Positions 2,376-64,000 of a stretch of DNA of 64,000 bases are shown here, piece after piece; the first letter of the stretch is position 1; every line of letters begins with the position of its first letter. The translations under genes and the position numbers were made by a program. Origin of the DNA: Shigella phage ESh36; sequence record ON528746. The stretch is one strand, 5' to 3'. Under the pieces are notes generated by a model that saw only the letters and a list, made by a program, of their open reading frames with translations, searched no databases and had not been told where the DNA came from.

Positions 2376-3312
2376 ATTTAAATTGTTCTGTAACGTCTTC
2401 AACTACTTCGTATTGGCAGGTACGCATTTTAGCATCGTTGTAATCAATCGGAATTGATACTACATCACGCGGATGTACTTTAACTTTTACAACTCGGCTG
2501 GTTGAACTGCCAAAGTGACGAATATAAGATTTAGAACACACATGCAGACCGCGAGAACAAGTTTGTGTATCATCGTCATTCACACGAGTACGTGGCATTT
2601 TAACTACTTTACCCGGACTGTTATCAAAGGTGTTTGAGTGACAGTCAAAGTAGTTGTCACGAACTACTTTCCAAGCATAGAAGTAACCATCTTCGGTGAT
2701 TTCAATATCGTTTGCTACCAAGAAATCAAAGAGTCGAGATACCGCTTTTTGGCTTGGGTTTTCCAACAGATTTTCCAGGAACGGAAAATAAAATTCAAAG
2801 TTTTCACCTTTTTCCATCGAGTCAAGAATACGATCAACCAAACCAGATCGTAATTCGATATTTTGATAGAACAAGCTTCCACCTTCAATTCGAACATCAC
2901 CGGAAATATATTTTTCAACAGCGCGACGAACGTTAATTTTTTGCGCTGCTTCTTCCAATTTATCTGCAACAAGCAGATTAAGAATTTCTTGGAAGTTTGA
3001 ATGAGTATTAGGAGTTGCGTTATAAGTTACGCCGTCAACGGTAATTGAAATGAATTTTTTAGATGCATTCCAAATAATGTCAGATTTAGCAACTGGAGCA
3101 ATAACTGCATCGCTATTAACTTTAACTGTAATATCACCGCTAATAGTAACTTTAGAGCGTTTAGCTTCTTCAGCATTTTTCAAAACACGACGGATTGTGT
3201 CAACCGATACACCTTGCCAATCAGCCAATTCCTGTTGGGTGTAATTACCACTTGAATACAGCTTAACAATTTCAGCTTGTTCGTTTTTGGTCAGGCATTT
3301 AATATTGTACAT
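2374..3312 (-). CDS. rIIB: rIIB protein
   Basis: 312-aa ORF directly downstream of rIIA; size and position as in T4. Confidence 0.85.
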   Translation of the reverse strand: MYNIKCLTKNEQAEIVKLYSSGNYTQQELADWQGVSVDTIRRVLKNAEEAKRSKVTISGDITVKVNSDAVIAPVAKSDIIWNASKKFISITVDGVTYNATPNTHSNFQEILNLLVADKLEEAAQKINVRRAVEKYISGDVRIEGGSLFYQNIELRSGLVDRILDSMEKGENFEFYFPFLENLLENPSQKAVSRLFDFLVANDIEITEDGYFYAWKVVRDNYFDCHSNTFDNSPGKVVKMPRTRVNDDDTQTCSRGLHVCSKSYIRHFGSSTSRVVKVKVHPRDVVSIPIDYNDAKMRTCQYEVVEDVTEQFK

Positions 3313-3323
3313 AATTTTCCTTA

Positions 3324-5501
3324 TTAGGCCGCAAGGGCCTTCATAGTTTTAGCGATTTGGGAAACTTCATCATCACTTAAAGAGTTGCGATAACCGATGA
3401 AGTCGGAAACAATACGGAATTTCTTGGTAAACTCAGCAACCATTTTATCACTATTTTTTGAAGCATTACGTGATAATTCATCAAAGAGATTAGTTACTGT
3501 CCAGATATCATGACCAATGGTATCTTTTCCACCATTGAAATACACACCGCGTAATGAACTAACCATATTAGCGAGTCGTGTATATTCTTCAGAAACTTCA
3601 TCTGTACTGAAGTACTTCATCATAAAATCTAGTTCAGGATGCTTGATAATTTTATCAATATATCGTTGAGCTGAACTTGAATAACCTACATACTTATCAT
3701 AATCTACATCATCAAAAGCATCTACATATAAATCACGCAAAGCTTCAAAAATACATTGGCACTGACCGAGTTCTTTTACCTTTTTCTGTAAAAGCGGACG
3801 AATAACATAAAATTCATTAATGCCAATAAGATTAGCCATACGAATCAAAATATTCATAGATGGATGACAAAGTGATGTAGTACCATCCATAGAGAAAATA
3901 TCAGAACGATGCATATACGCTACATAACCAGTAATTTCATCTGCTTCTGACGTAAGTGTAAATAATTCCTCTTTTTCCCAACGCCCATCTTTAATTTCAA
4001 ACTTAAATGCTGTAGCAGCTTTAGGACGAGGAGCTTTACTTTTAACTGCCTTCGGAATATAACTTTTAACTAAAGCTTCAATTTCTGACAAATAATGAAT
4101 GTTAACTTCATCACTTTCAAACATTGCCATAATATCAGGGAGTAAATCAATCTGCGATTCTACTTCCGGATTAATAAACAAAAGACGCTCATTATGATGA
4201 ATATTCAAAGTGTTATTAAATTCACTATCATCTAACGCATGCGCTAATCCACGGACAATATTAACGCGATTTTTAATATTATCAATAACGATATTAATTT
4301 TTGTTGTATTAATACCGAACAGACGATAACTTGATGCAACGGCTGAAGTTTCATGACTTTGCTTAATGCGTTTCAGTCGAGGGTCAAGATTTACTTCATA
4401 CACAACTCCTGCATTGCATAGCTTACTATCTGGTTCAAACATGCTTTGCATCTTCTTATATGACAGATTTTTAGTCGTAAATTTGACTGAATTACTAATC
4501 ATATAATCTCGAGCAGAATATCCCATCTTCATCAATTCACGGTATGTATGACGAGGAGATGTAGATTCTTTAAATCGTTTTACATCTTCATTGAATGCCT
4601 TCTCACTAAGCTCTTTAACACGCTCAATAATATTTTTACGAGTACGATCATCTAATGAAAGAGCTTCGCGTGATGGAGCAATATCAAGTGAACCCATTGG
4701 AAACTTAATGTAATTCACTTCATTACGGATGCTTAACCAGTTACGGTCTCTAATAACACCATCAATAGGATAAACAATACCGCCGTAGATAGCATATAAT
4801 CCACCACGATCTGGCCAATATCTTTCTGGATTTACACCGTAATAGTCATCAAAATCCGGAAAATAATCAATTTCACGGTCAAGACCATTAATGATAGCCA
4901 AATCTTTGAATGGTCGCATGATATAAGAAACTTCATAAGCAAAGTTTCTAAAGTCTTTTTCTTCAACTGGAACTACGATTTCAATACCAGTTTTATCATC
5001 TGGACCCATTTCTTTTACGAATGTAGGTTTAATCTGTGGACCATCACCATCCATGTAAGCTACATAACCACGAATTTCACCTTTATGATATGAAGTAATA
5101 CTAAATGTATCAGTATAACTAAACGGAGATTTAGAACCTAAACCAAACCCGCCAATAAAGTCATTAGATTCAGCCTTAGATGAACTGAAGTATGAATTAT
5201 ACAGACCAGGAGAATTATCATCACCCTGAATATCAAAATCACTCATACCCGGACCAAAATCTCGACAAACAAATCGTGGATCTAAACGTCCAGGAACTTG
5301 TATGATAAATTTTTCAGGATTTCCATTGAGAGCATGGGCATCAATCATGTTGGTAATCAATTCACGGACTACTGCGCGAATTTTGTTTGTATACAAATCA
5401 GATGACAGAATTTTAAATACTTTAGGAGATGCTGTGATGCTAAATGCTTTTGATTTAGAACCATTACCAAGAATTGTTTCTTTTTCAGTGGTGATAATCA
5501 T
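3324..5501 (-). CDS. rIIA: rIIA protein
   Basis: 725-aa ORF beginning [27 protein letters not shown], matching recalled T4 rIIA N-terminus and length. Confidence 0.9.
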
Positions 5502-56417: not shown

Positions 56418-57386
56418 TTATTTCAGAAGAGTAACCTCAGCAATTTCTTCCCAACCGTTTTTGTCGGTCATAATAAAGTCAGCAAGATAAAGAGCAGTAC
56501 GCAGTGAAACATTGCGTAAACGATTAACATTAACTTTCATCCATGATAATGCTTTATAAGTTTCTTCATCAGAAAGACCGCGCTTTTGCATCATGTCAGT
56601 TGAAAGAATAACATCTTCAACCCTGACCATAATTTCTTCATTAGTGTGAACACCCAAATCTAAATAAACTGAGCGGGACACTAATGCTTGTAAATGTGGA
56701 GCAAGTTTAGTACCACGGTCTAATTCGCGGTCAATGTCAACGTTTGTGATAAAAACAATCGTTCCTTTAAATTCAAACTCACGCTCAATGCCTTTTTCTT
56801 CTAAGTAAGAAGATGCAGTGCTCCAGCAGACTTTACGGGTCTCTCCGGTGTCCAGAGCGGCTTTTAGAAGATTAAGAATGTCCATATCAGAGAAAACATC
56901 CACATCATCAATCAAAAGGACAGAATTCTCTTCACGATTATTCCAGAGCTGTTCATAAAGACCAATACCAGAGATTTTACCGTTAATGCTTTTATATTCA
57001 ATGTATCCCTTATCATTTGCTTTATTCAAAGCTTTATCTAAAGAATACGTTTTACCAATACCCGCCGCACCAGAGATAATTAATGAACGAATGTTTCCGT
57101 TAATAATACCATTCGTCATCATTCCCATAACATTAAATCTTTTATTAATGCGGGTTTTCATATCTTCATATGATTCTTTAACTTCTTCAACTTTTACACC
57201 ATCATATGAAATGTCTGATTTGTAAACCCAAACACCGCGACGCTTACCGTCAATTTCAACAAAAACTTTACCATCTCCTTGTGCATCTACCGGAGCATTA
57301 TCTGGGAACCATTCACCTAAGAGCTCAAAAGTTCCAGAGATTTCTTTACCGAAGTAGATACCCTTATTGATAGTTACAGTTTTCAT
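56418..57386 (-). CDS. P-loop NTPase (Walker A/B ATPase)
   Basis: Walker A GAAGIGKT and Walker B VLLIDDVD; ATG start MKTVTINK with GGAG SD. Confidence 0.55.
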   Translation of the reverse strand: MKTVTINKGIYFGKEISGTFELLGEWFPDNAPVDAQGDGKVFVEIDGKRRGVWVYKSDISYDGVKVEEVKESYEDMKTRINKRFNVMGMMTNGIINGNIRSLIISGAAGIGKTYSLDKALNKANDKGYIEYKSINGKISGIGLYEQLWNNREENSVLLIDDVDVFSDMDILNLLKAALDTGETRKVCWSTASSYLEEKGIEREFEFKGTIVFITNVDIDRELDRGTKLAPHLQALVSRSVYLDLGVHTNEEIMVRVEDVILSTDMMQKRGLSDEETYKALSWMKVNVNRLRNVSLRTALYLADFIMTDKNGWEEIAEVTLLK

Positions 57387-57422
57387 TTTATTCTCCAATC
57401 TCACATTTGTTTTGATAGGGTA

Positions 57423-57452
57423 ATAGTATCACACTACTACCCTTCTGTAAAC
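57423..57452 (-). promoter_or_regulatory. T4-type early promoter
   Basis: GTTTAC, 18 bp, TACTAT. Confidence 0.55.
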
Positions 57453-57455
57453 AAT

Positions 57456-57719
57456 TTATTTTAACGTTCGCCAAATTTTTACTGCTTCACGGCGAGATAC
57501 TTCTACAGCTCCAAGTTCTATAGCTTTTTGGCGTCGGCGAGCGTGTAAGTCATAATGTTTAATGCGTTTATCTTGAAACCAAGAACGTTTCATTCCTATT
57601 GCTTCTGCCATTTCATGAAGCTCTTCAATATCTCCATCAGTGAACATATGACAATTTTTAGTTGGATGACCGCGAAGTTTCCATCCATGATTCATTAAAA
57701 CATCTACGTAAACTGTCAT
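57456..57719 (-). CDS. hypothetical protein
   Basis: 87-aa ORF. Confidence 0.45.
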   Translation of the reverse strand: MTVYVDVLMNHGWKLRGHPTKNCHMFTDGDIEELHEMAEAIGMKRSWFQDKRIKHYDLHARRRQKAIELGAVEVSRREAVKIWRTLK

Positions 57720-57865
57720 TGATTCTTCTCCAAATAAGTTTCGATAATTTTCTGAGCGAGATAAACCGCGTTATCTTCAGTTGCGTCTTCTAAGAAACTT
57801 TCAAAACACTCTGAAATTTCTTCTGTGTCAATCAACTTTTTTACTTCAATTGGTGTAATTTTCAT
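57716..57865 (-). CDS. hypothetical small acidic protein
   Basis: ATG at 57865 (MKITPIEV) with GGAG SD and early promoter. Confidence 0.4.
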   Translation of the reverse strand: MKITPIEVKKLIDTEEISECFESFLEDATEDNAVYLAQKIIETYLEKNQ

Positions 57866-57978: not shown

Positions 57979-58989
57979 TCATTTATAATAACTTCGGTGG
58001 TTTTCAAGATAAACCCTCTCAAGGAAGTCATCCCAAAAACCCATGTCTACTTTTTGCTGCATACCGTTCTTAGAAGCTTCAGTAGATGCTGCTTCTACTT
58101 GATCGACCACATCTTCCAAAAACTCTTGAACCGTTTTAAATGGATGCTTACCCAACTTCACGTCGAGAATAAAGGGAGCATCTTGGAGTGGATAAATCAA
58201 GTCGCCAGTTTTGTAAATTTCCAATAGTTGAAGTCCACCACGACAAGCATGGCTCAGAGCTTTCCAGTCAATGCCTTCGTTGGCTTCGGCTTTACGAGCA
58301 CGTTCACCGTATTCAGCATCTAATTTGTTCAGTGACTGCTTAAGCTCAATAAGAGAAAGCGTTGTCTGATATTTACGACCCAACACAGTGTAGAACGTTT
58401 GTGGACCTGTTTTCTCATGATTATGGAATACCCATTCACAGAATTCGTTCTCTGGAAGACGATGCTTAATATCTTCAACTTTAGTACGACGCTGCTTAAT
58501 GGAACCGTCTTCTTGGTAATCAATCCACTGCTCAGGGATTTGATTAACTACTTTCAATACATCACGTAATGCAGCCAAACGAGAACCCTTAACGCCGTAT
58601 TTAGAAGCTTGCTTGCGAACATATCCTAAATAGGATTTCATGTTAGTCGTATAAAAACGAGAACGGTTGTCTTGAATAAACTTCCACACATCAGGCAAAT
58701 CAGATTTAACCACTAGTTCAGGTGGAGTGTGAAGCATATCTAATGCTACAGTTTCACCATCTGCTGCTAATTTAAAGAAATATTTAAGACTGTATAGTTC
58801 ATGGTCAATATCATCTTTAGTGTTTTTAGATGATGTGTTGTTAGTATTTTTACTCATGTGCTCTTTAACATTTCCAATAAGAATATCGCGAGCAGGAGGA
58901 ACAAAGATTTCTTTAAAATCTACATCAGATTCTGGAGTAGAAGTTCCATAAAGATGACTACCAAAATAAGACTTAACTACAGTTTTCAT
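57979..58989 (-). CDS. nucleotidyltransferase-fold protein (Pol beta superfamily motif)
   Basis: N-terminal YFGSHLYGTSTPESDVDFKEIFV resembles the GS-x9-DxD NTase signature. Confidence 0.5.
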   Translation of the reverse strand: MKTVVKSYFGSHLYGTSTPESDVDFKEIFVPPARDILIGNVKEHMSKNTNNTSSKNTKDDIDHELYSLKYFFKLAADGETVALDMLHTPPELVVKSDLPDVWKFIQDNRSRFYTTNMKSYLGYVRKQASKYGVKGSRLAALRDVLKVVNQIPEQWIDYQEDGSIKQRRTKVEDIKHRLPENEFCEWVFHNHEKTGPQTFYTVLGRKYQTTLSLIELKQSLNKLDAEYGERARKAEANEGIDWKALSHACRGGLQLLEIYKTGDLIYPLQDAPFILDVKLGKHPFKTVQEFLEDVVDQVEAASTEASKNGMQQKVDMGFWDDFLERVYLENHRSYYK

Positions 58990-59462
58990 TATTCAGCCTT
59001 ATATTCAATAACAGGACATACTTTAGCTTTACGAGCTTTTAAAAATTCAACGATAATCGATTTCTTGGGTTGAATAGGAGGTAAACCTTTATACGCCCTA
59101 TCAATATTTTCTATGTGTAAAGCATAATCCTTTTTCCATTTATAATCTTTATATTTTTCATACAAATGCGCAGGAATAACAAATGAACCGATAATAAGTA
59201 AAACAACCAAAAGCGCAAGTATAAATGCTGATGGAAGAAGAGTCCATAAACTACCGAAAATAAGCCAACGTTGTAGGCTTTCTGCACAAATAATTGTTAG
59301 ACCTGCGAGTATAGTACATCCGAAAAAAGAAACGAAAAATGTAGGGATAACAATAGACCAAAAGTATGCACACAGTGTCTTAGGTCGTTTCCATTCATCG
59401 TTAAACAGTTTGAATAATTTATAGTGCCAAGAGTTTTCATTAATAATCATAATTATAATCAT
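58989..59462 (-). CDS. membrane protein
   Basis: 157-aa ORF with several hydrophobic segments. Confidence 0.45.
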   Translation of the reverse strand: MIIIMIINENSWHYKLFKLFNDEWKRPKTLCAYFWSIVIPTFFVSFFGCTILAGLTIICAESLQRWLIFGSLWTLLPSAFILALLVVLLIIGSFVIPAHLYEKYKDYKWKKDYALHIENIDRAYKGLPPIQPKKSIIVEFLKARKAKVCPVIEYKAE

Positions 59463-59980
59463 CCTTTCATTGAAGGTGTAACAGTTGTTAAATACTTAAT
59501 CATAGCCTCAGCTTCTGATTTTGATAATGAAATTTCTTCATTGTTTTGACGAATAGAAATAAAATCCGGATGACGGTCACCACCAGCTTTTAAAACACAC
59601 ATATAAGTATCAGTTTCATCTTCAATATTTGAAATGATTGAAGCAGTTCCACATGAATGCGGTTTTTGATAAATCAATACAGCTTTTCTTCCGCCATTTG
59701 ACTGTTCATAAACTTTTAACACATCAAACAAATCGCTTCTTTTATCAATAGCTAAGATGTTGTTTTCATCTTCAATATTAAATCCTTCGGATACTTCATA
59801 AAGTGTCACCCATAAATCACCAATATCAATAACAGCGTTCACTTTTCCATGACTTTCAAGAGCATTACAAATTTTCTTAATTTCATCATAACTCATTTTA
59901 ATAATATCATCTCCTTGAATAAGGAAGATGTCATTTTTAAATTCAACACGAATTAAACCACTTCCACTTGAAATAAACAT
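59459..59980 (-). CDS. hypothetical protein (paralog pair member)
   Basis: 173-aa ORF; C-terminus SKSEAEAMIKYLTTVTPSM similar to next ORF. Confidence 0.45.
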   Translation of the reverse strand: MFISSGSGLIRVEFKNDIFLIQGDDIIKMSYDEIKKICNALESHGKVNAVIDIGDLWVTLYEVSEGFNIEDENNILAIDKRSDLFDVLKVYEQSNGGRKAVLIYQKPHSCGTASIISNIEDETDTYMCVLKAGGDRHPDFISIRQNNEEISLSKSEAEAMIKYLTTVTPSMKG

Positions 59981-59986
59981 ATTTCC

Positions 59987-60541
59987 TCACTTTGAAATCA
60001 TAATTGGAATGACAGAATCGAGATAAGTCTTTAGCGCAATAGCTTCGTCTTTGGTAAATGTGACAATATACGATCGAAAATCATCAATTTGACGAATAGT
60101 TAAGACATCACCATCTTCATAGCATTTTGAAACATTTAAAATAGTTTCATCATTCTGATTACAGGAGTTAGTAATAATAGCATTACATTTTTTAAACCAT
60201 TTTAAATTATGTTTTCTTTTAGTAGAATCATAAAAATATTTAATGTTAGTTATAAAATTATCCCAATTATTAATTGATAAGCACATTGACTCGCTTTTAA
60301 TATTAAATCCTGGGCATGAAGAATAAAAATTAATTTTATGCTCATCATTAATGCTTACAATTTTATCAGTGTAAGCATATTCAATTTGGGTTAAACGAAC
60401 AATTTCACTAAACGTAAAATATAACATATCGTCTTCTTGCGTCAAACGATACATGTTATTTACTTTTTCTATAGCCAATTCACCAAAAAGCGGACTAACT
60501 TCTAATACTAATCGTTTCATATTAATCCTTTTTATTGGCAC
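59987..60541 (-). CDS. hypothetical protein (paralog pair member)
   Basis: 184-aa ORF; C-terminus TKDEAIALKTYLDSVIPIM. Confidence 0.45.
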   Translation of the reverse strand: MPIKRINMKRLVLEVSPLFGELAIEKVNNMYRLTQEDDMLYFTFSEIVRLTQIEYAYTDKIVSINDEHKINFYSSCPGFNIKSESMCLSINNWDNFITNIKYFYDSTKRKHNLKWFKKCNAIITNSCNQNDETILNVSKCYEDGDVLTIRQIDDFRSYIVTFTKDEAIALKTYLDSVIPIMISK

Positions 60542-60800
60542 GAATTTGTTCTAAAATTTTAGAGTATTCCTTTGTATCAGATTTACGTACAATCGATACA
60601 CTATACGGCATACTATCGGTGTCTTTTATAAAGCGTTCCAAATGACATTCTAATAAAATTTCTGGATTATAAATCGTGTACATCAAATTACCTGTTGCTC
60701 CACGATATTGACAGACTTCTACTGATTGAACACCATTCCATAATTTTGTTAAGACCAAATCACCTACTTCTAATTTAGGAAAGCCCATGTTATTCACCAA
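60522..60800 (-). CDS. hypothetical protein
   Basis: 92-aa ORF. Confidence 0.45.
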   Translation of the reverse strand: MVNNMGFPKLEVGDLVLTKLWNGVQSVEVCQYRGATGNLMYTIYNPEILLECHLERFIKDTDSMPYSVSIVRKSDTKEYSKILEQIRANKKD

Positions 60801-60975
60801 TTAAAGTTTCAATATAAGAATCAAGATTTACTTTAGCTTCTTCCATAAGAGTTTTGTATTTAATCTTGTTAGCATGTCCGGAGAAAGCTGATTCATCAAT
60901 AACTGTTGCTGTATGAACAGCTTTGCTATATGTTTCAATTAATTCTTTTAATTTAAAAGCCTGCTCACTTGTCAT
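60790..60975 (-). CDS. small helical protein (small-paralog family)
   Basis: 61-aa ORF beginning MTSEQAFKLKELIE. Confidence 0.4.
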   Translation of the reverse strand: MTSEQAFKLKELIETYSKAVHTATVIDESAFSGHANKIKYKTLMEEAKVNLDSYIETLIGE

Positions 60976-61107
60976 TACATACTCCTTTGAATAATATCAA
61001 TAATGTTGTTCACCAGATTATAAGTAAACATTGGGTAATTATATTGAATCATCACATACACAACAAACAAAACTTTCATTCTCTTCTCCTTGGCAGTTGA
61101 CAAGATT

Positions 61108-61137
61108 ACTATACCATAACCTTGCCAACTTGTAAAC
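61108..61137 (-). promoter_or_regulatory. T4-type early promoter
   Basis: GTTTAC, 18 bp, TATAGT. Confidence 0.55.
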
Positions 61138-61139
61138 CA

Positions 61140-61313
61140 TTAAATGACGTTTTCAATAAAATTCTGAAGCTTTGTGTGAGCATCAACCATGATTTTCATT
61201 TCTTCTTTTGCGAAAGCTGTACCTCTTTCACGAGAAGAACATTCATAGTCAGAAACTGCATTAGCATATTCTTCAATTAGCTTCATTAAAAACATCTGCT
61301 TTTCAGTTTTCAT
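61140..61313 (-). CDS. small helical protein (small-paralog family)
   Basis: 57-codon ORF below threshold: MKTEKQMFLMKLIEEYANAV. Confidence 0.35.
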   Translation of the reverse strand: MKTEKQMFLMKLIEEYANAVSDYECSSRERGTAFAKEEMKIMVDAHTKLQNFIENVI

Positions 61314-61497
61314 TATTCCACCTAATCATTTCAAGATATTGAACTAACTTAGCTTTAGATTTATCCAAATCCTTTTTAGCTGCTTCTATACCATCGTATG
61401 AATATCCTTCACAATGCTCAACTGCTAATTGATATGAATCTATTTCAATATCACGTGCTAATTTAATGATTTTTTCAAACTGTTCGCGTGTTAGCAT
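61303..61497 (-). CDS. small helical protein (small-paralog family)
   Basis: 64-aa ORF: MLTREQFEKIIKLARDI. Confidence 0.4.
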   Translation of the reverse strand: MLTREQFEKIIKLARDIEIDSYQLAVEHCEGYSYDGIEAAKKDLDKSKAKLVQYLEMIRWNNEN

Positions 61498-61499
61498 AC

Positions 61500-61739
61500 T
61501 TACACTCTCGTATTATGATCGATAATTTCATCAAGAAACATATCTAACGCTTCTATAGCATTATCCACTTTAGTTTCAAAGTCTTTAATGCCTTTATTCG
61601 AAATACCCGATGAATACCAAGCAAAGTCAATCAGCTCTTCATCTGCTTTACGAATTGAAGCCACTAATTCCTTGATTTTATCTGCTTGCTCTATACTAAT
61701 CATTATTCCACCACATATGACAGAGAGAATATTGCACAC
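61500..61739 (-). CDS. small helical protein (small-paralog family)
   Basis: 79-aa ORF containing [16 protein letters not shown]. Confidence 0.4.
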
Positions 61740-61879
61740 GCCATGTGAATTGCAACTTCATCACACATATCATAACGTTTCTTAAGAAGTTCTACAAGTT
61801 CTTCACTAGTGACTTCATCCATGTCGACGAAAAAATCACCATTAATGATGACATAGCGATTAAGTGCTTCAATTTTCAT
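61703..61879 (-). CDS. hypothetical small protein
   Basis: ATG at 61879 (MKIEALNRY) with GAGGAG SD and early promoter. Confidence 0.4.
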
Positions 61880-61945: not shown

Positions 61946-61963
61946 TGAAAAAAGTCTCCCGAA
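61946..61963 (-). terminator. UUCG-tetraloop hairpin terminator
   Basis: mRNA GUCUCC-UUCG-GGAGAC followed by UUUUUU. Confidence 0.5.
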
Positions 61964-61974
61964 GGAGACTAACG

Positions 61975-62361
61975 TTATTCGAGGGAAAGAAGATACTTAC
62001 TCTGGTAAAACATTCCAGTAATATCATCTATCGTGCTTTGGATGGCTGGAGGCATTTCTTTATAAATGCTGTTAGATTGGTCTAGTATGCGATCAATCAT
62101 TTTAATTGTGTCGGTAGGAAGTTTACTAGCATCTGGAATTGAAGGTGTGTATTTTCTACCAGAATACCCCAAATATTGCTCACCAAATTTATCAATCAAA
62201 TCTGGCAACTCGGAGAAAATAAAATCGTATGCTTTGTGTCTAGCATAACTTTTAGTTTCAAAATGCGCAGAATGAAAATAAGCTTGTGCAGCCATTAATA
62301 AACCTAAGTATTCATCTGCCTTTGAAGGTTTTCCACTTTGTGAAAAGTCGCTGAATTTCAT
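61975..62361 (-). CDS. hypothetical protein (rI.1 position)
   Basis: 128-aa ORF immediately downstream of rI. Confidence 0.45.
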
Positions 62362-62651
62362 TCAGTCTCCAATTTAATGTTCATAATTCTAGCGTATGAT
62401 TGTGCCATCTCCGCGCCTCGCTCTATACATTCAAAATCGGAAGAGCACGGGTCATTTTTATAAGTCGTTCGCATAAAACTATAGAACTGTTCAGATGATT
62501 CTACGCTTTTATTTTCAAAAAGCATATAAACGTGTCTAATACCAGATTCCATAAATTTATCAAAATGAGGATCGACATTCGCTTCAATTGGTGGAGATAA
62601 AGCAAACGCTAATCCTAGCATGGCAAATAGTGCCGTTGCTTTTAAGGCCAT
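62358..62651 (-). CDS. rI: lysis inhibition regulator RI (periplasmic antiholin)
   Basis: 97-aa ORF with N-terminal signal/SAR-like segment MALKATALFAMLGLAFALS; size and position next to tk match T4 rI. Confidence 0.7.
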   Translation of the reverse strand: MALKATALFAMLGLAFALSPPIEANVDPHFDKFMESGIRHVYMLFENKSVESSEQFYSFMRTTYKNDPCSSDFECIERGAEMAQSYARIMNIKLETE

Positions 62652-62663
62652 AAAGGCCTCCTA

Positions 62664-62876
62664 TCATTTTTGTCCTGTATTTACTTTATGCCGATGCACG
62701 GCCTTAACTTTATCAAGGTATTTTTCAAAATTTCGCAATCTAGTATAGTCTGCCGGAGATTGGTTGAGTGATACTTCTCGACGCAAAGCTGAAATGATAT
62801 TTCCAACTTCCCTACGAATTTCATCTAATTGAAGAACAGTAAGATTGCGAAGTTGCTTTTCAGTTAATTGTAGCAT
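62664..62876 (-). CDS. hypothetical protein (rI.-1 position)
   Basis: 70-aa ORF preceded by a late promoter. Confidence 0.45.
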
Positions 62877-62918: not shown

Positions 62919-63500
62919 CTAACCGAGCTTTTTAGTTAATTCATTCCAATGTTTTCTACACAAAGAAACATAAATTTCATCACCAATACAGATTTGATTA
63001 CCTTCTTTAACTGGTGTTCCATCTTCCATTAATCGAGCTGTCATAATAGCTTTTTTACCACAATGACAAACTGCCTTTAGTTCAATAAGTTTATCTGCAA
63101 TCGCCAAAAGTTCTTTAGAACCTTCAAACAATTTTCCAGCGAAATCAGTCCTTAGCCCATAAGCCATAACAGGAACATTATATGTATCAACAATTCGACT
63201 TAATTGATGCACCTGTTCAGTTTTTAAAAACTGAGCTTCATCTACAAATACACAATGAATATCTTTTTGTGCTTCAGCCCATTTATAGAACTCAAAAATA
63301 TCCATATCATCCGTAATAATATTCGCTTCCTGCTTAATTCCAATGCGAGAAACGACTTCACAGACAGAATCGCGAGTATCAATAGCAGGCTTAAGAACTA
63401 ATACACTCATTCCGCGTTCTTTATAATTATGTGCAGCAGTCAAAAGAGAAGCAGATTTTCCAGCATTCATTGCTGCGTAAGTAAAAATTAAACTCGCCAT
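62919..63500 (-). CDS. tk: thymidine kinase
   Basis: 193-aa ORF with P-loop AAMNAGKS and C-terminal zinc ribbon. Confidence 0.9.
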   Translation of the reverse strand: MASLIFTYAAMNAGKSASLLTAAHNYKERGMSVLVLKPAIDTRDSVCEVVSRIGIKQEANIITDDMDIFEFYKWAEAQKDIHCVFVDEAQFLKTEQVHQLSRIVDTYNVPVMAYGLRTDFAGKLFEGSKELLAIADKLIELKAVCHCGKKAIMTARLMEDGTPVKEGNQICIGDEIYVSLCRKHWNELTKKLG

Positions 63501-63509
63501 ATCACCTTC

Positions 63510-63695
63510 TTAAAGCATATTCACATAAGCTATTAATTCGTTTTCTTTCTTATCAAACCGATCAGCAAATTCTTCCTGCTGTTCAGGAGATAGCGGGCCG
63601 TATTCATCATAAAAGGTGTTTGCTTCTGTATGCTCATCTAGAAGTTCATGGATAAGCTCAAACAATTTATCTTTTTGTTCTTTACTCAGACTCAT
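63510..63695 (-). CDS. hypothetical protein
   Basis: 61-aa acidic ORF upstream of tk. Confidence 0.45.
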   Translation of the reverse strand: MSLSKEQKDKLFELIHELLDEHTEANTFYDEYGPLSPEQQEEFADRFDKKENELIAYVNML

Positions 63696-64000
63696 GTATT
63701 AATTTCCAGGAGTTTTAAAATAATTCGCTTTTGCTTAAATATTTCCATGGTTAAATGACCAGTATCTTTTTGACCGATTCCAATGGCAAAACCTTTATTG
63801 ACAGCGAGTTCAATTAAATTATCAAGCTCACGTAACACTTCATATTGTAACTCAAAACTATTCATTTTGGTTTACCTTCTTTAACGAAATCAGGATAAGG
63901 ATAAAATCCTGAATAAAATCCTTCACCTTTATGATTGATGCATCCTTTATTAGAACAATAGCACCAATAATCGAAATCACAAGCCATTTCATCATTACAT

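Follow-up and report, generated by a model that had tools for sequence, protein, structure and literature searches.

Two tandem gene families in the variable block between nrdC.11 and tk of Shigella phage ESh36

Introduction

The region between nrdC.11 and tk of Shigella phage ESh36 raises the question of whether its runs of small, look-alike genes are true families and, if so, how old the copies are and what their products might do. The region lies within the window analysed here, a stretch of 64,000 nucleotides from sequence record ON528746. An initial annotation, made from the sequence alone, had pointed to two adjacent open reading frames (ORFs) of about 180 amino acids with a common C-terminal motif and to four consecutive ORFs of 57-79 amino acids with a common N-terminal pattern, and had described them as locally amplified families upstream of rI. 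The region is very probably a variable accessory block that carries two families restricted to T4-like phages, T4_y05I and DUF7438, both derived from old tandem duplications. The copies are real genes that are expressed early, evolve under moderate purifying selection and are dispensable in the laboratory, and the set has changed by gain and loss, through deletions, through recombination of paralogs with one another and where a homing endonuclease has inserted. Both families are already known, as Pfam entries and through genes at least 90% identical to those found here in hundreds of sequenced T4-like phages. The initial annotation had overlooked that they are catalogued (DUF7438, T4_y05I_N/C) and that they include T4 mobD.1, mobD.2a, mobD.3, mobD.4, tk.1 and tk.2.

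The region was placed by comparison with the annotated phage OE5505 and with T4, and the window derives from a T4-like phage (Tequatrovirus) and covers the region from nrdC.11 to tk. The 3.7 kb spanning the two clusters match 508 phage records at 90-96% nucleotide identity, mostly phages of Escherichia, Shigella and Yersinia, and those inspected belong to the genus Tequatrovirus. The arrangement in ESh36 is the common one: 419 of the 508 records match over 80% or more of the 3.7-kb query.

The two families

The two ORFs of about 180 amino acids, paralogs A and B, align from end to end and not through a C-terminal motif alone, with 26% identity over 176 columns (E 2e-10) in a single BLASTP comparison. 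Each contains both y05I domains: paralog A scores 119.6 and 83.8 bits, and paralog B 143.5 and 66.8 bits, against Pfam cut-offs of 24.9 bits for PF24449 (T4_y05I_N) and 27 bits for PF24448 (T4_y05I_C). By these alignments the pair are true paralogs. Paralog B is 94% identical to T4 MobD.1; paralog A is specific to Tequatrovirus, reaches 90% identity or more in 433 of the 481 phage records that match it, and is acidic (isoelectric point (pI) 4.7, net charge -10). The family as a whole forms 49 clusters at 90% identity. A Tudor gene stands directly before the y05I pair in ESh36, and in a distant T4-like contig (10454-10943) a Tudor gene is followed, with an adjoining or overlapping start, by a y05I gene that consists of the C domain only. 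This recurrent adjacency suggests that Tudor and y05I constitute a conserved, possibly translationally coupled gene pair.

The four small ORFs of the initial annotation are related as well. Their scores against PF24219 (DUF7438) are 58.1 bits for the 61-amino-acid protein D61, 56.5 for MobD.2a, 64.1 for MobD.3 and 59.4 for MobD.4, where the curated gathering cut-off for the whole-protein hidden Markov model (HMM) score is 25 bits. A fifth member beyond these four, the Tk.2 ortholog, scores 68.5 bits, and T4 Tk.1 and Tk.2 match the model too. In the same Pfam scan PF24219 was not matched by MobD.5, by rI.1 or by a 57-amino-acid ORF at 63692-63865. Because the Pfam model may derive from the same subfamilies, two Pfam-free tests were run. 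In the first, one profile per ortholog group was built from database relatives and the profiles were compared by hhalign, with MobD.5, rI.1 and the 57-amino-acid ORF as controls. Full-length links were obtained between D61 and MobD.4 (E 1.8e-6), MobD.4 and MobD.3 (9.4e-6), MobD.3 and Tk.2 (6.9e-5), D61 and Tk.2 (1.1e-4) and D61 and MobD.2a (4e-4), the linked range extending up to 4.7e-4, and the control ORFs gave E values of at least 0.036 and probabilities of at most 1.4%. The other test set single-sequence Smith-Waterman scores against 1000 shuffles and yielded z values of 7.5, 5.8, 4.5, 3.3 and 2.8 for linked DUF7438 pairs and of at most 1.3 with any control. The significant links form a connected graph in which some pairs, such as MobD.2a and MobD.3, are joined only through intermediates. 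The small DUF7438 genes are confirmed as true paralogs, and the motifs first noticed in the two families have statistical support from BLASTP, Pfam, hhalign and shuffles.

When the six-frame ORFs of the window were searched with HMMs built for this purpose (from 5, 30 and 21 sequences), nothing was recovered beyond the five genes of DUF7438 and the two of y05I, the next match being at E 0.16. Among 1.84 billion representative proteins, searched exhaustively with the family profile, there were only 39 DUF7438 clusters (50% identity) at E <= 0.001, two of which are long, multi-stretch proteins and were taken as false positives. The 25 newly retrieved relatives are 42-133 amino acids long, mostly about 60, and most begin with the pattern M-x-T-x-E-Q-x-x-K-L. 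With the five-gene profile, the 118 database clusters obtained sort into five groups of orthologs, the members of each being 53-100% identical to a single gene of the window; T4 tk.1 represents a sixth group. The small and the larger ORFs make up two genuine tandem families without assigned function, as first proposed, and no function is attached to the corresponding Pfam families.

Age, distribution and turnover of the copies

Protein identity among paralogs is 16-37%, and the nucleotide echoes between them measure only 15-26 nucleotides, three of them in register with paralogous genes. Orthologs specific to each copy occur throughout Tequatrovirus, and for some copies in other genera too. 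The low identity, the lack of long repeats and the separate orthologs of each copy imply that the duplications are old, and both families appear to have grown by tandem duplication long ago and then to have diverged deeply. The description of these genes as locally amplified is thus borne out as regards tandem paralogy and not as regards recent gain, given this level of protein identity and the absence of any nucleotide repeat longer than 26 nucleotides.

The distribution of the families was followed by scanning the tk neighbourhood of other genera with the family HMMs. PhAPEC2 (Mosigvirus) carries two DUF7438 genes and VR5 (Dhakavirus) three, each with one full-length y05I gene. JD18 (Jiaodavirus) has one DUF7438 gene and a weak match to the y05I C-domain region, and TG1 (Tegunavirus) has one weak DUF7438 match and a stand-alone y05I C domain. 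A 173-kb metagenomic T4-like contig has two DUF7438 genes adjoining tk, and a Tudor gene followed by a C-domain-only y05I gene. Within Tequatrovirus the number of DUF7438 copies is 5-6, so that comparison across relatives places the copy number between one in distant genera and six in Tequatrovirus. The copy adjacent to tk was found in every genus examined and, being the most widespread, is probably ancestral. The four-gene DUF7438 set of the mobD block and the second y05I copy are Tequatrovirus expansions.

Traces of turnover are preserved in several relatives. In two metagenomic contigs (4001-4540) the place of the tandem pair, between flanks that are otherwise syntenic, is taken by one hybrid y05I gene, and one of these contigs also carries all six DUF7438 genes. 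In the hybrid, an N domain of the MobD.1 type passes into a C domain of the paralog-A type at the shared D-E-T motif, which is direct evidence of recombination between paralogs. In phage Bas43 the N-terminus of MobD.5 is fused to the C-terminus of paralog A, which implies the deletion of all genes in between, and in several records under the name of phage T4 the C-terminus of NrdC.11 is joined to MobD.1 or MobD.3. The present setting fits earlier reports of adjacent paralogous duplications such as alt and motB (PMC1524935) and the hyperplastic regions described in T4-like genomes (PMC4122927).

Comparison with T4 and product names

In T4 the HNH homing endonuclease gene mobD stands in place of the gene for a 157-amino-acid membrane protein and paralog A (58994-59961 versus T4 56450-57257); the latter two genes, rather than mobD, are the majority arrangement in Tequatrovirus. 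By nucleotide alignment T4 is also without the stretch 60519-60963, which holds the Tudor gene and D61, and altogether four genes present in ESh36 are missing from T4. T4 mobD.2a is a frameshifted remnant of the 57-amino-acid gene (38 amino acids, two frame-shifted pieces). Protein identity to T4 is 97% for MobD.3, 75% for MobD.4, with an indel in the loop, and 54% for Tk.2. T4 has two DUF7438 genes beside tk (tk.1 and tk.2), of which ESh36 has only the tk.2 ortholog. T4 is thus the depleted genome, from which one of the two y05I copies, Tudor and one member of DUF7438 have been lost and in which another DUF7438 gene is frameshifted; most Tequatrovirus genomes hold the fuller set seen in ESh36. 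Similarity to T4 breaks sharply past tk (63501-64000), from 98% in the DNA of tk to 68% in the DNA of the tk.2 ortholog. The ORF that follows, at 63692-63865, matches neither T4 tk.3 in DNA nor any Pfam family.

Three product names attached to orthologs in public phage records look wrong. Some RefSeq records of D61, in keeping with the label of phrog_4859, name it a helicase loader; this was rejected because no loader Pfam family matched at E <= 1 and no loader was among the PDB sequence matches at E <= 10. By these Pfam and PDB searches D61 is a DUF7438 member that is not similar to loaders of the T4 gp59, DnaC or lambda P type. RefSeq homologs of MobD.1 and MobD.4 are called molybdopterin-guanine dinucleotide biosynthesis protein "MobD", and no MobA/MobB-type Pfam or NCBIfam match was obtained; the name seems to have been confused with mobD, the symbol that in T4 stands for a mobile endonuclease. 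The rI.-1 ortholog is named "starvation-inducible transcriptional regulator" in records, and its only Pfam match is DUF5856.

Expression, selection and dispensability

The best promoter-like site of the region (61136-61108) falls, by coordinate mapping, on the T4 early promoter Pe57954. This promoter (Pe57954/Pe57.9) has been named as a DksA-sensitive early promoter of T4 (PMC6024815), and a promoter and transcript of mobD.5 are documented for T4 (PMC1702504). In a time-resolved transcriptome and proteome of T4 infection, MobD.1, MobD.3 and MobD.4 are classed as "early RNA, early protein" and Tk.1 and Tk.2 as "early RNA, middle protein", and mobD.2, mobD.2a and mobD.5 have early RNA and no protein class (PMC9697503, supplementary files 4 and 6). 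The ratio of non-synonymous to synonymous substitution rates (dN/dS), a crude, pairwise and gene-wide estimate taken against OE5505 and T4, is 0.13-0.36 across the genes of the clusters and 0.01-0.02 for tk; within the clusters it is 0.13-0.25 for the DUF7438 genes (0.25 for D61) and 0.13 for paralog A. The values for the clusters indicate moderate purifying selection. Viable T4 mutants without nrdC.11-mobD.3 have been obtained by CRISPR-based genome reduction (PMC9825161). A search of the accessible literature found no paper that mentions DUF7438 or the y05I family, and the main text of the CRISPRi-ART preprint on T4 makes no mention of these genes.

Predicted folds

AlphaFold2 predicts from a 30-sequence alignment that DUF7438 is an antiparallel two-helix hairpin, with helices at residues 4-30 and 36-65 and a mean predicted local distance difference test (pLDDT) score of 82. 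The invariant positions are leucines, in each helix. Acidity is common to the five proteins (pI from 4.3 to 5.3, net charge from -2 to -10). Within MobD.4 and Tk.2, variation is greatest, and includes indels, in the loop and the neighbouring helix ends.

The y05I prediction (21 sequences, mean pLDDT 79) comprises three units of beta meander plus helix, two of them beta4-alpha units in the N domain (pLDDT about 90) and the third, a five-stranded meander with a long helix, in the C domain (56-80). The first unit is weakly similar to the C domain (paralog B residues 5-49 versus 127-169, hhalign E 1.7e-4), and the C domain exists alone, as a protein of 71-75 amino acids, in other T4-like genera. 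This weak similarity suggests that the y05I protein may have arisen by internal repetition of a unit that is found alone elsewhere. Searches of PDB sequences with the profiles of the two families yielded no match better than E 0.18, and no relative of DUF7438.

Gene order and neighbouring features

Every gene from nrdC.11 to tk is on the minus strand (Table 1). The clusters are therefore transcriptionally downstream of rI and not upstream of it, as had been stated. The four small ORFs had also been described as consecutive; three do abut (61140-61703), and the fourth (60790-60975) lies behind the early promoter and a 34-amino-acid ORF. All the ORFs, small and large, were found on the minus strand at the coordinates first given, with some corrections of start. 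The likeliest start of MobD.4 is the ATG at 61703, with GGTGG before it, which gives 67 amino acids; the upstream GTG that would give 79 is without a ribosome-binding site and lies inside mobD.5. Similarly, the ORF of paralog B extends to a GTG at 60541 (184 amino acids), and the likelier start (177 amino acids) is the ATG at 60520, for which there is a Shine-Dalgarno sequence. Every gene start in the clusters has a plausible Shine-Dalgarno sequence, and several stop and start codons overlap. A similarity of 26 nucleotides (77%) between 61297-61322 and 61687-61712 covers, in register, the ribosome-binding sites and starts of mobD.2a and mobD.4; it could be a remnant of duplication or a common translation-initiation signal.

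Table 1. Coordinates of genes and signals around the two families in the ESh36 window. Rows read in the direction of transcription, tk first and nrdC.11 last, and are followed by the tk.2 ortholog.
Feature	Positions	Strand	Match	Remarks
tk	62919-63500	-		
rI.1	62664-62876	-		hhalign control; no DUF7438 match
rI	62358-62651	-		
rI.-1	61975-62361	-	DUF5856 (sole Pfam match)	
Terminator-like hairpin and T run	61953-61970	-		splits rI.-1 from the mobD.5 unit; terminator annotated at the same place in OE5505
mobD.5 ortholog, 58 aa (amino acids)	61703-61879	-	no Pfam match; own phrog_3024	first gene of the mobD.5-mobD.2a unit; outside both families
mobD.4 ortholog, 67 aa	61500-61703	-	PF24219, E 4.4e-16	DUF7438 member
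mobD.3 ortholog, 64 aa	61303-61497	-	PF24219, E 1.5e-17	DUF7438 member
mobD.2a, full-length, 57 aa	61140-61313	-	PF24219, E 3.7e-15	DUF7438 member
Early-promoter-like site	61108-61136	-	TTTACA-17-TATAGT with TG	top promoter match in the region, 10/12
mobD.2 ortholog, hydrophobic ORF, 34 aa	60975-61079	-		first gene past the early promoter; Shine-Dalgarno AAGGAG upstream; outside both families
D61, 61 aa	60790-60975	-	PF24219, E 1.1e-15; phrog_4859	DUF7438 member; no T4 counterpart
Phage_tudor gene, 88 aa	60522-60788	-	PF24144, E 2.7e-40	outside both families; absent from T4
y05I paralog B (T4 MobD.1 ortholog), 177 aa from ATG	59987-60520	-	PF24449, E 3.5e-42; PF24448, E 2e-18	
y05I paralog A, 173 aa	59459-59980	-	PF24449, E 1e-34; PF24448, E 1e-23	
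Basic membrane protein, 157 aa	58989-59462	-	phrog_944 membrane protein, E 1e-50	
nrdC.11	57979-58989	-		
tk.2 ortholog, 61 aa	63510-63695	-	PF24219, E 6.6e-19	fifth DUF7438 member; pI 4.3; adjoins tk

The gene for the 157-amino-acid membrane protein keeps its position after the y05I genes in Mosigvirus, Dhakavirus and metagenomic relatives. Beyond nrdC.11, about 460 bp in the gap between nrdC.10 and nrdC.11 (57399-57858) have no T4 counterpart and contain an 87-amino-acid DUF4031 gene (57456-57719, minus strand, Pfam E 1e-21) and a partial small ORF. The nrdC.10 ortholog itself (56418-57404) has sub-threshold matches to STAND/AAA NTPase domains (nSTAND3 at E 8e-5, AAA_16, AAA_22) near a GAAGIGKT Walker A sequence.

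Interpretation

The explanation preferred here, which joins the identity of the genes to a mechanism, is the best of those considered, and as a whole we hold it at slightly less than an even chance. The acidic DUF7438 hairpins of about 60 amino acids would pair into four-helix bundles, as such folds normally do, and would act as small oligomeric binders, modulating proteins of the host or of the phage in the early phase of infection. The paralogs would be specialised for different targets, and the variable loop and adjoining helix ends of MobD.4 and Tk.2 would carry the specificity. The y05I proteins would likewise be early-acting binders of macromolecules, either protein or single-stranded nucleic acid. 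This mechanistic part, with DUF7438 as four-helix-bundle binders of diverged targets and y05I as macromolecule binders, is a tentative proposal that is more apt to fail than to hold. Several observations weigh against it. The loop of MobD.3 is highly conserved, so that the idea of loop specificity fails for some paralogs. The DUF7438 fold search against the PDB retrieved generic hairpins only (histidine-kinase dimerisation domains and designed homo-oligomers, best E 0.47). The y05I model matched no PDB fold at E <= 0.001, the matches to Ctf4, Pob3 and the beta clamp (template modelling (TM) score <= 0.2) being spurious, and its significant matches among viral structure models are family members only. 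Gene-wide dN/dS gives no sign of positive selection, no homology or experiment links either family to a target, and dispensability in the laboratory says nothing about a role in nature.

Two alternatives concern the reality and the age of the families. Chance similarity among AT-rich small ORFs, some of them not genes, would account for single pairs that are not significant alone (z 0.8 for D61 with MobD.3, z 1.2 for MobD.2a with MobD.4) and for hhalign probabilities that are moderate (32-90%), but its probability is practically nil: it is excluded by the Pfam matches in all five genes (E 1e-15 to 1e-19), by the connected graph of significant links with its negative controls, by the low dN/dS of the DUF7438 genes and by the detection of T4 orthologs as proteins. 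Scarcely more credible is a recent local amplification, in which copy number would change like an "accordion" under present-day selection, as in the adaptation of phages and poxviruses to host defence. The genes are tandem and in a single orientation, copy number varies among relatives and the region is prone to deletion and recombination, all of which count in its favour; yet the levels of identity between paralogs and the lack of longer nucleotide repeats exclude it, each copy has its own orthologs, 70-100% identical, in hundreds of phages, and the positions of some copies are shared with other genera.

The other two alternatives accept the families and assign them a role. One holds that the proteins bind nucleic acid: DUF7438 would be a Rop-like four-helix-bundle dimer with affinity for RNA, and y05I, on the Whirly/PUR pattern, would bind single-stranded DNA or RNA and so regulate gene expression in the phage or its host. 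The two beta4-alpha units predicted for the y05I N domain have the Whirly/PUR topology, a regulator would suit the early timing, and the size, hairpin fold and N-terminal sequence of DUF7438 recall Rop, which we take to count in favour. The y05I fold search also supplied two leads that fall short of significance, Pur-alpha (3k44_B, probability 0.95, E 0.07, TM 0.30/0.37) and, among viral models, a phage protein labelled "Whirly transcription factor" (E 0.11). Such a role is nevertheless rather unlikely, since no fold match is significant (TM scores of 0.3-0.37), no PUR, Whirly or Rop family of Pfam matches at E <= 1, the acidity of all the DUF7438 proteins and of paralog A is unusual for such binders, and confidence in the model of the y05I C domain is low. 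Membership of y05I in the Whirly/PUR fold accordingly goes no further than a compatible topology, with no significant match to a solved domain, and the Pfam label "putative transcription factor" likewise found no significant solved DNA- or RNA-binding match by sequence or by fold. The other role is counter-defence, in which each paralog would inhibit or decoy a different host anti-phage system and duplication and loop variation would record an arms race. The variable early block of relatives also holds a gene of the Acb2/Tad1 hairpin type and genes for internal proteins, the products are small, acidic and made early, the phage can do without them in laboratory hosts, close relatives differ in copy number and in the sequence of the loops, and Tk.2 is only 54% identical to its T4 counterpart beside a tk that is 98% identical in DNA. 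Against this stand the absence of any similarity to Acb2, of gene-wide positive selection and of an experimental link; NCBIfam and PADLOC scans gave no meaningful matches, those to PADLOC being only noise, which is a weak test in that its library consists of defence and not anti-defence proteins. We consider counter-defence unlikely, if worth keeping in mind. In the 173-kb T4-like contig the Acb2/Tad1 hairpin gene (3029-3307), of the anti-CBASS/Thoeris sponge family, lies a few genes from the DUF7438 pair. A sponge of that type was rejected for DUF7438, whose profile gave an hhalign probability of 0.1% (E 0.41) against this Acb2-like gene.

A bolder reading would make DUF7438 a diversifying array of up to six co-expressed hairpin inhibitors that may form mixed four-helix bundles, each neutralising a different host defence or takeover target with the loop setting specificity, and would make the y05I pair and Tudor a second such module; this must be considered quite improbable. 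As a discovery the present result carries little weight, being correct but ordinary and concerned with catalogued families. Its by-products are corrected gene starts, a fifth DUF7438 member, the view of T4 as a reduced genome and a set of doubtful product names. For screens by deletion or interaction, a little-studied family of six expressed early proteins in the best-known of phages makes a reasonable choice.

Comparison with known systems

Rop (Rom) of ColE1 plasmids is a 63-amino-acid helical hairpin that dimerises into a four-helix bundle and binds RNA. It is similar in size to DUF7438 and to its predicted antiparallel two-helix hairpin, and by analogy could serve as a model for a small stable oligomer; it differs in that no Rop family of Pfam matches at E <= 1, in that it is not among the top 50 fold matches, and in the acidity of DUF7438. 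Whirly and PUR-alpha proteins share repeated beta-beta-beta-beta-alpha units with the predicted y05I N domain, whereas there is no sequence signal between them and paralog A has a net charge of -10. Closer at hand is T4 MobD.1 (Y05I): both of the ESh36 genes of about 180 amino acids hold both of its domains, and the second copy is about 25% identical and strongly acidic.

The other tandem sets of T4-type phages (alt/alt.-1/alt.-2 and motB) are likewise accessory early genes that lie as side-by-side duplicates in variable blocks between core modules. Those sets come from families whose activities are known, ADP-ribosyltransferase being an example, in contrast to DUF7438 and y05I, and the copy number of DUF7438, up to six, exceeds that of the other sets. 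For the small genes the counterpart is the PF24219 set of T4 itself (MobD.2a, MobD.3, MobD.4, Tk.1 and Tk.2). Four of the ESh36 genes are direct orthologs of these T4 genes, with 54-97% identity and the same length, genome position and early expression, and the ESh36 set differs from that of T4 in an extra member of 61 amino acids, an intact MobD.2a and the absence of Tk.1.

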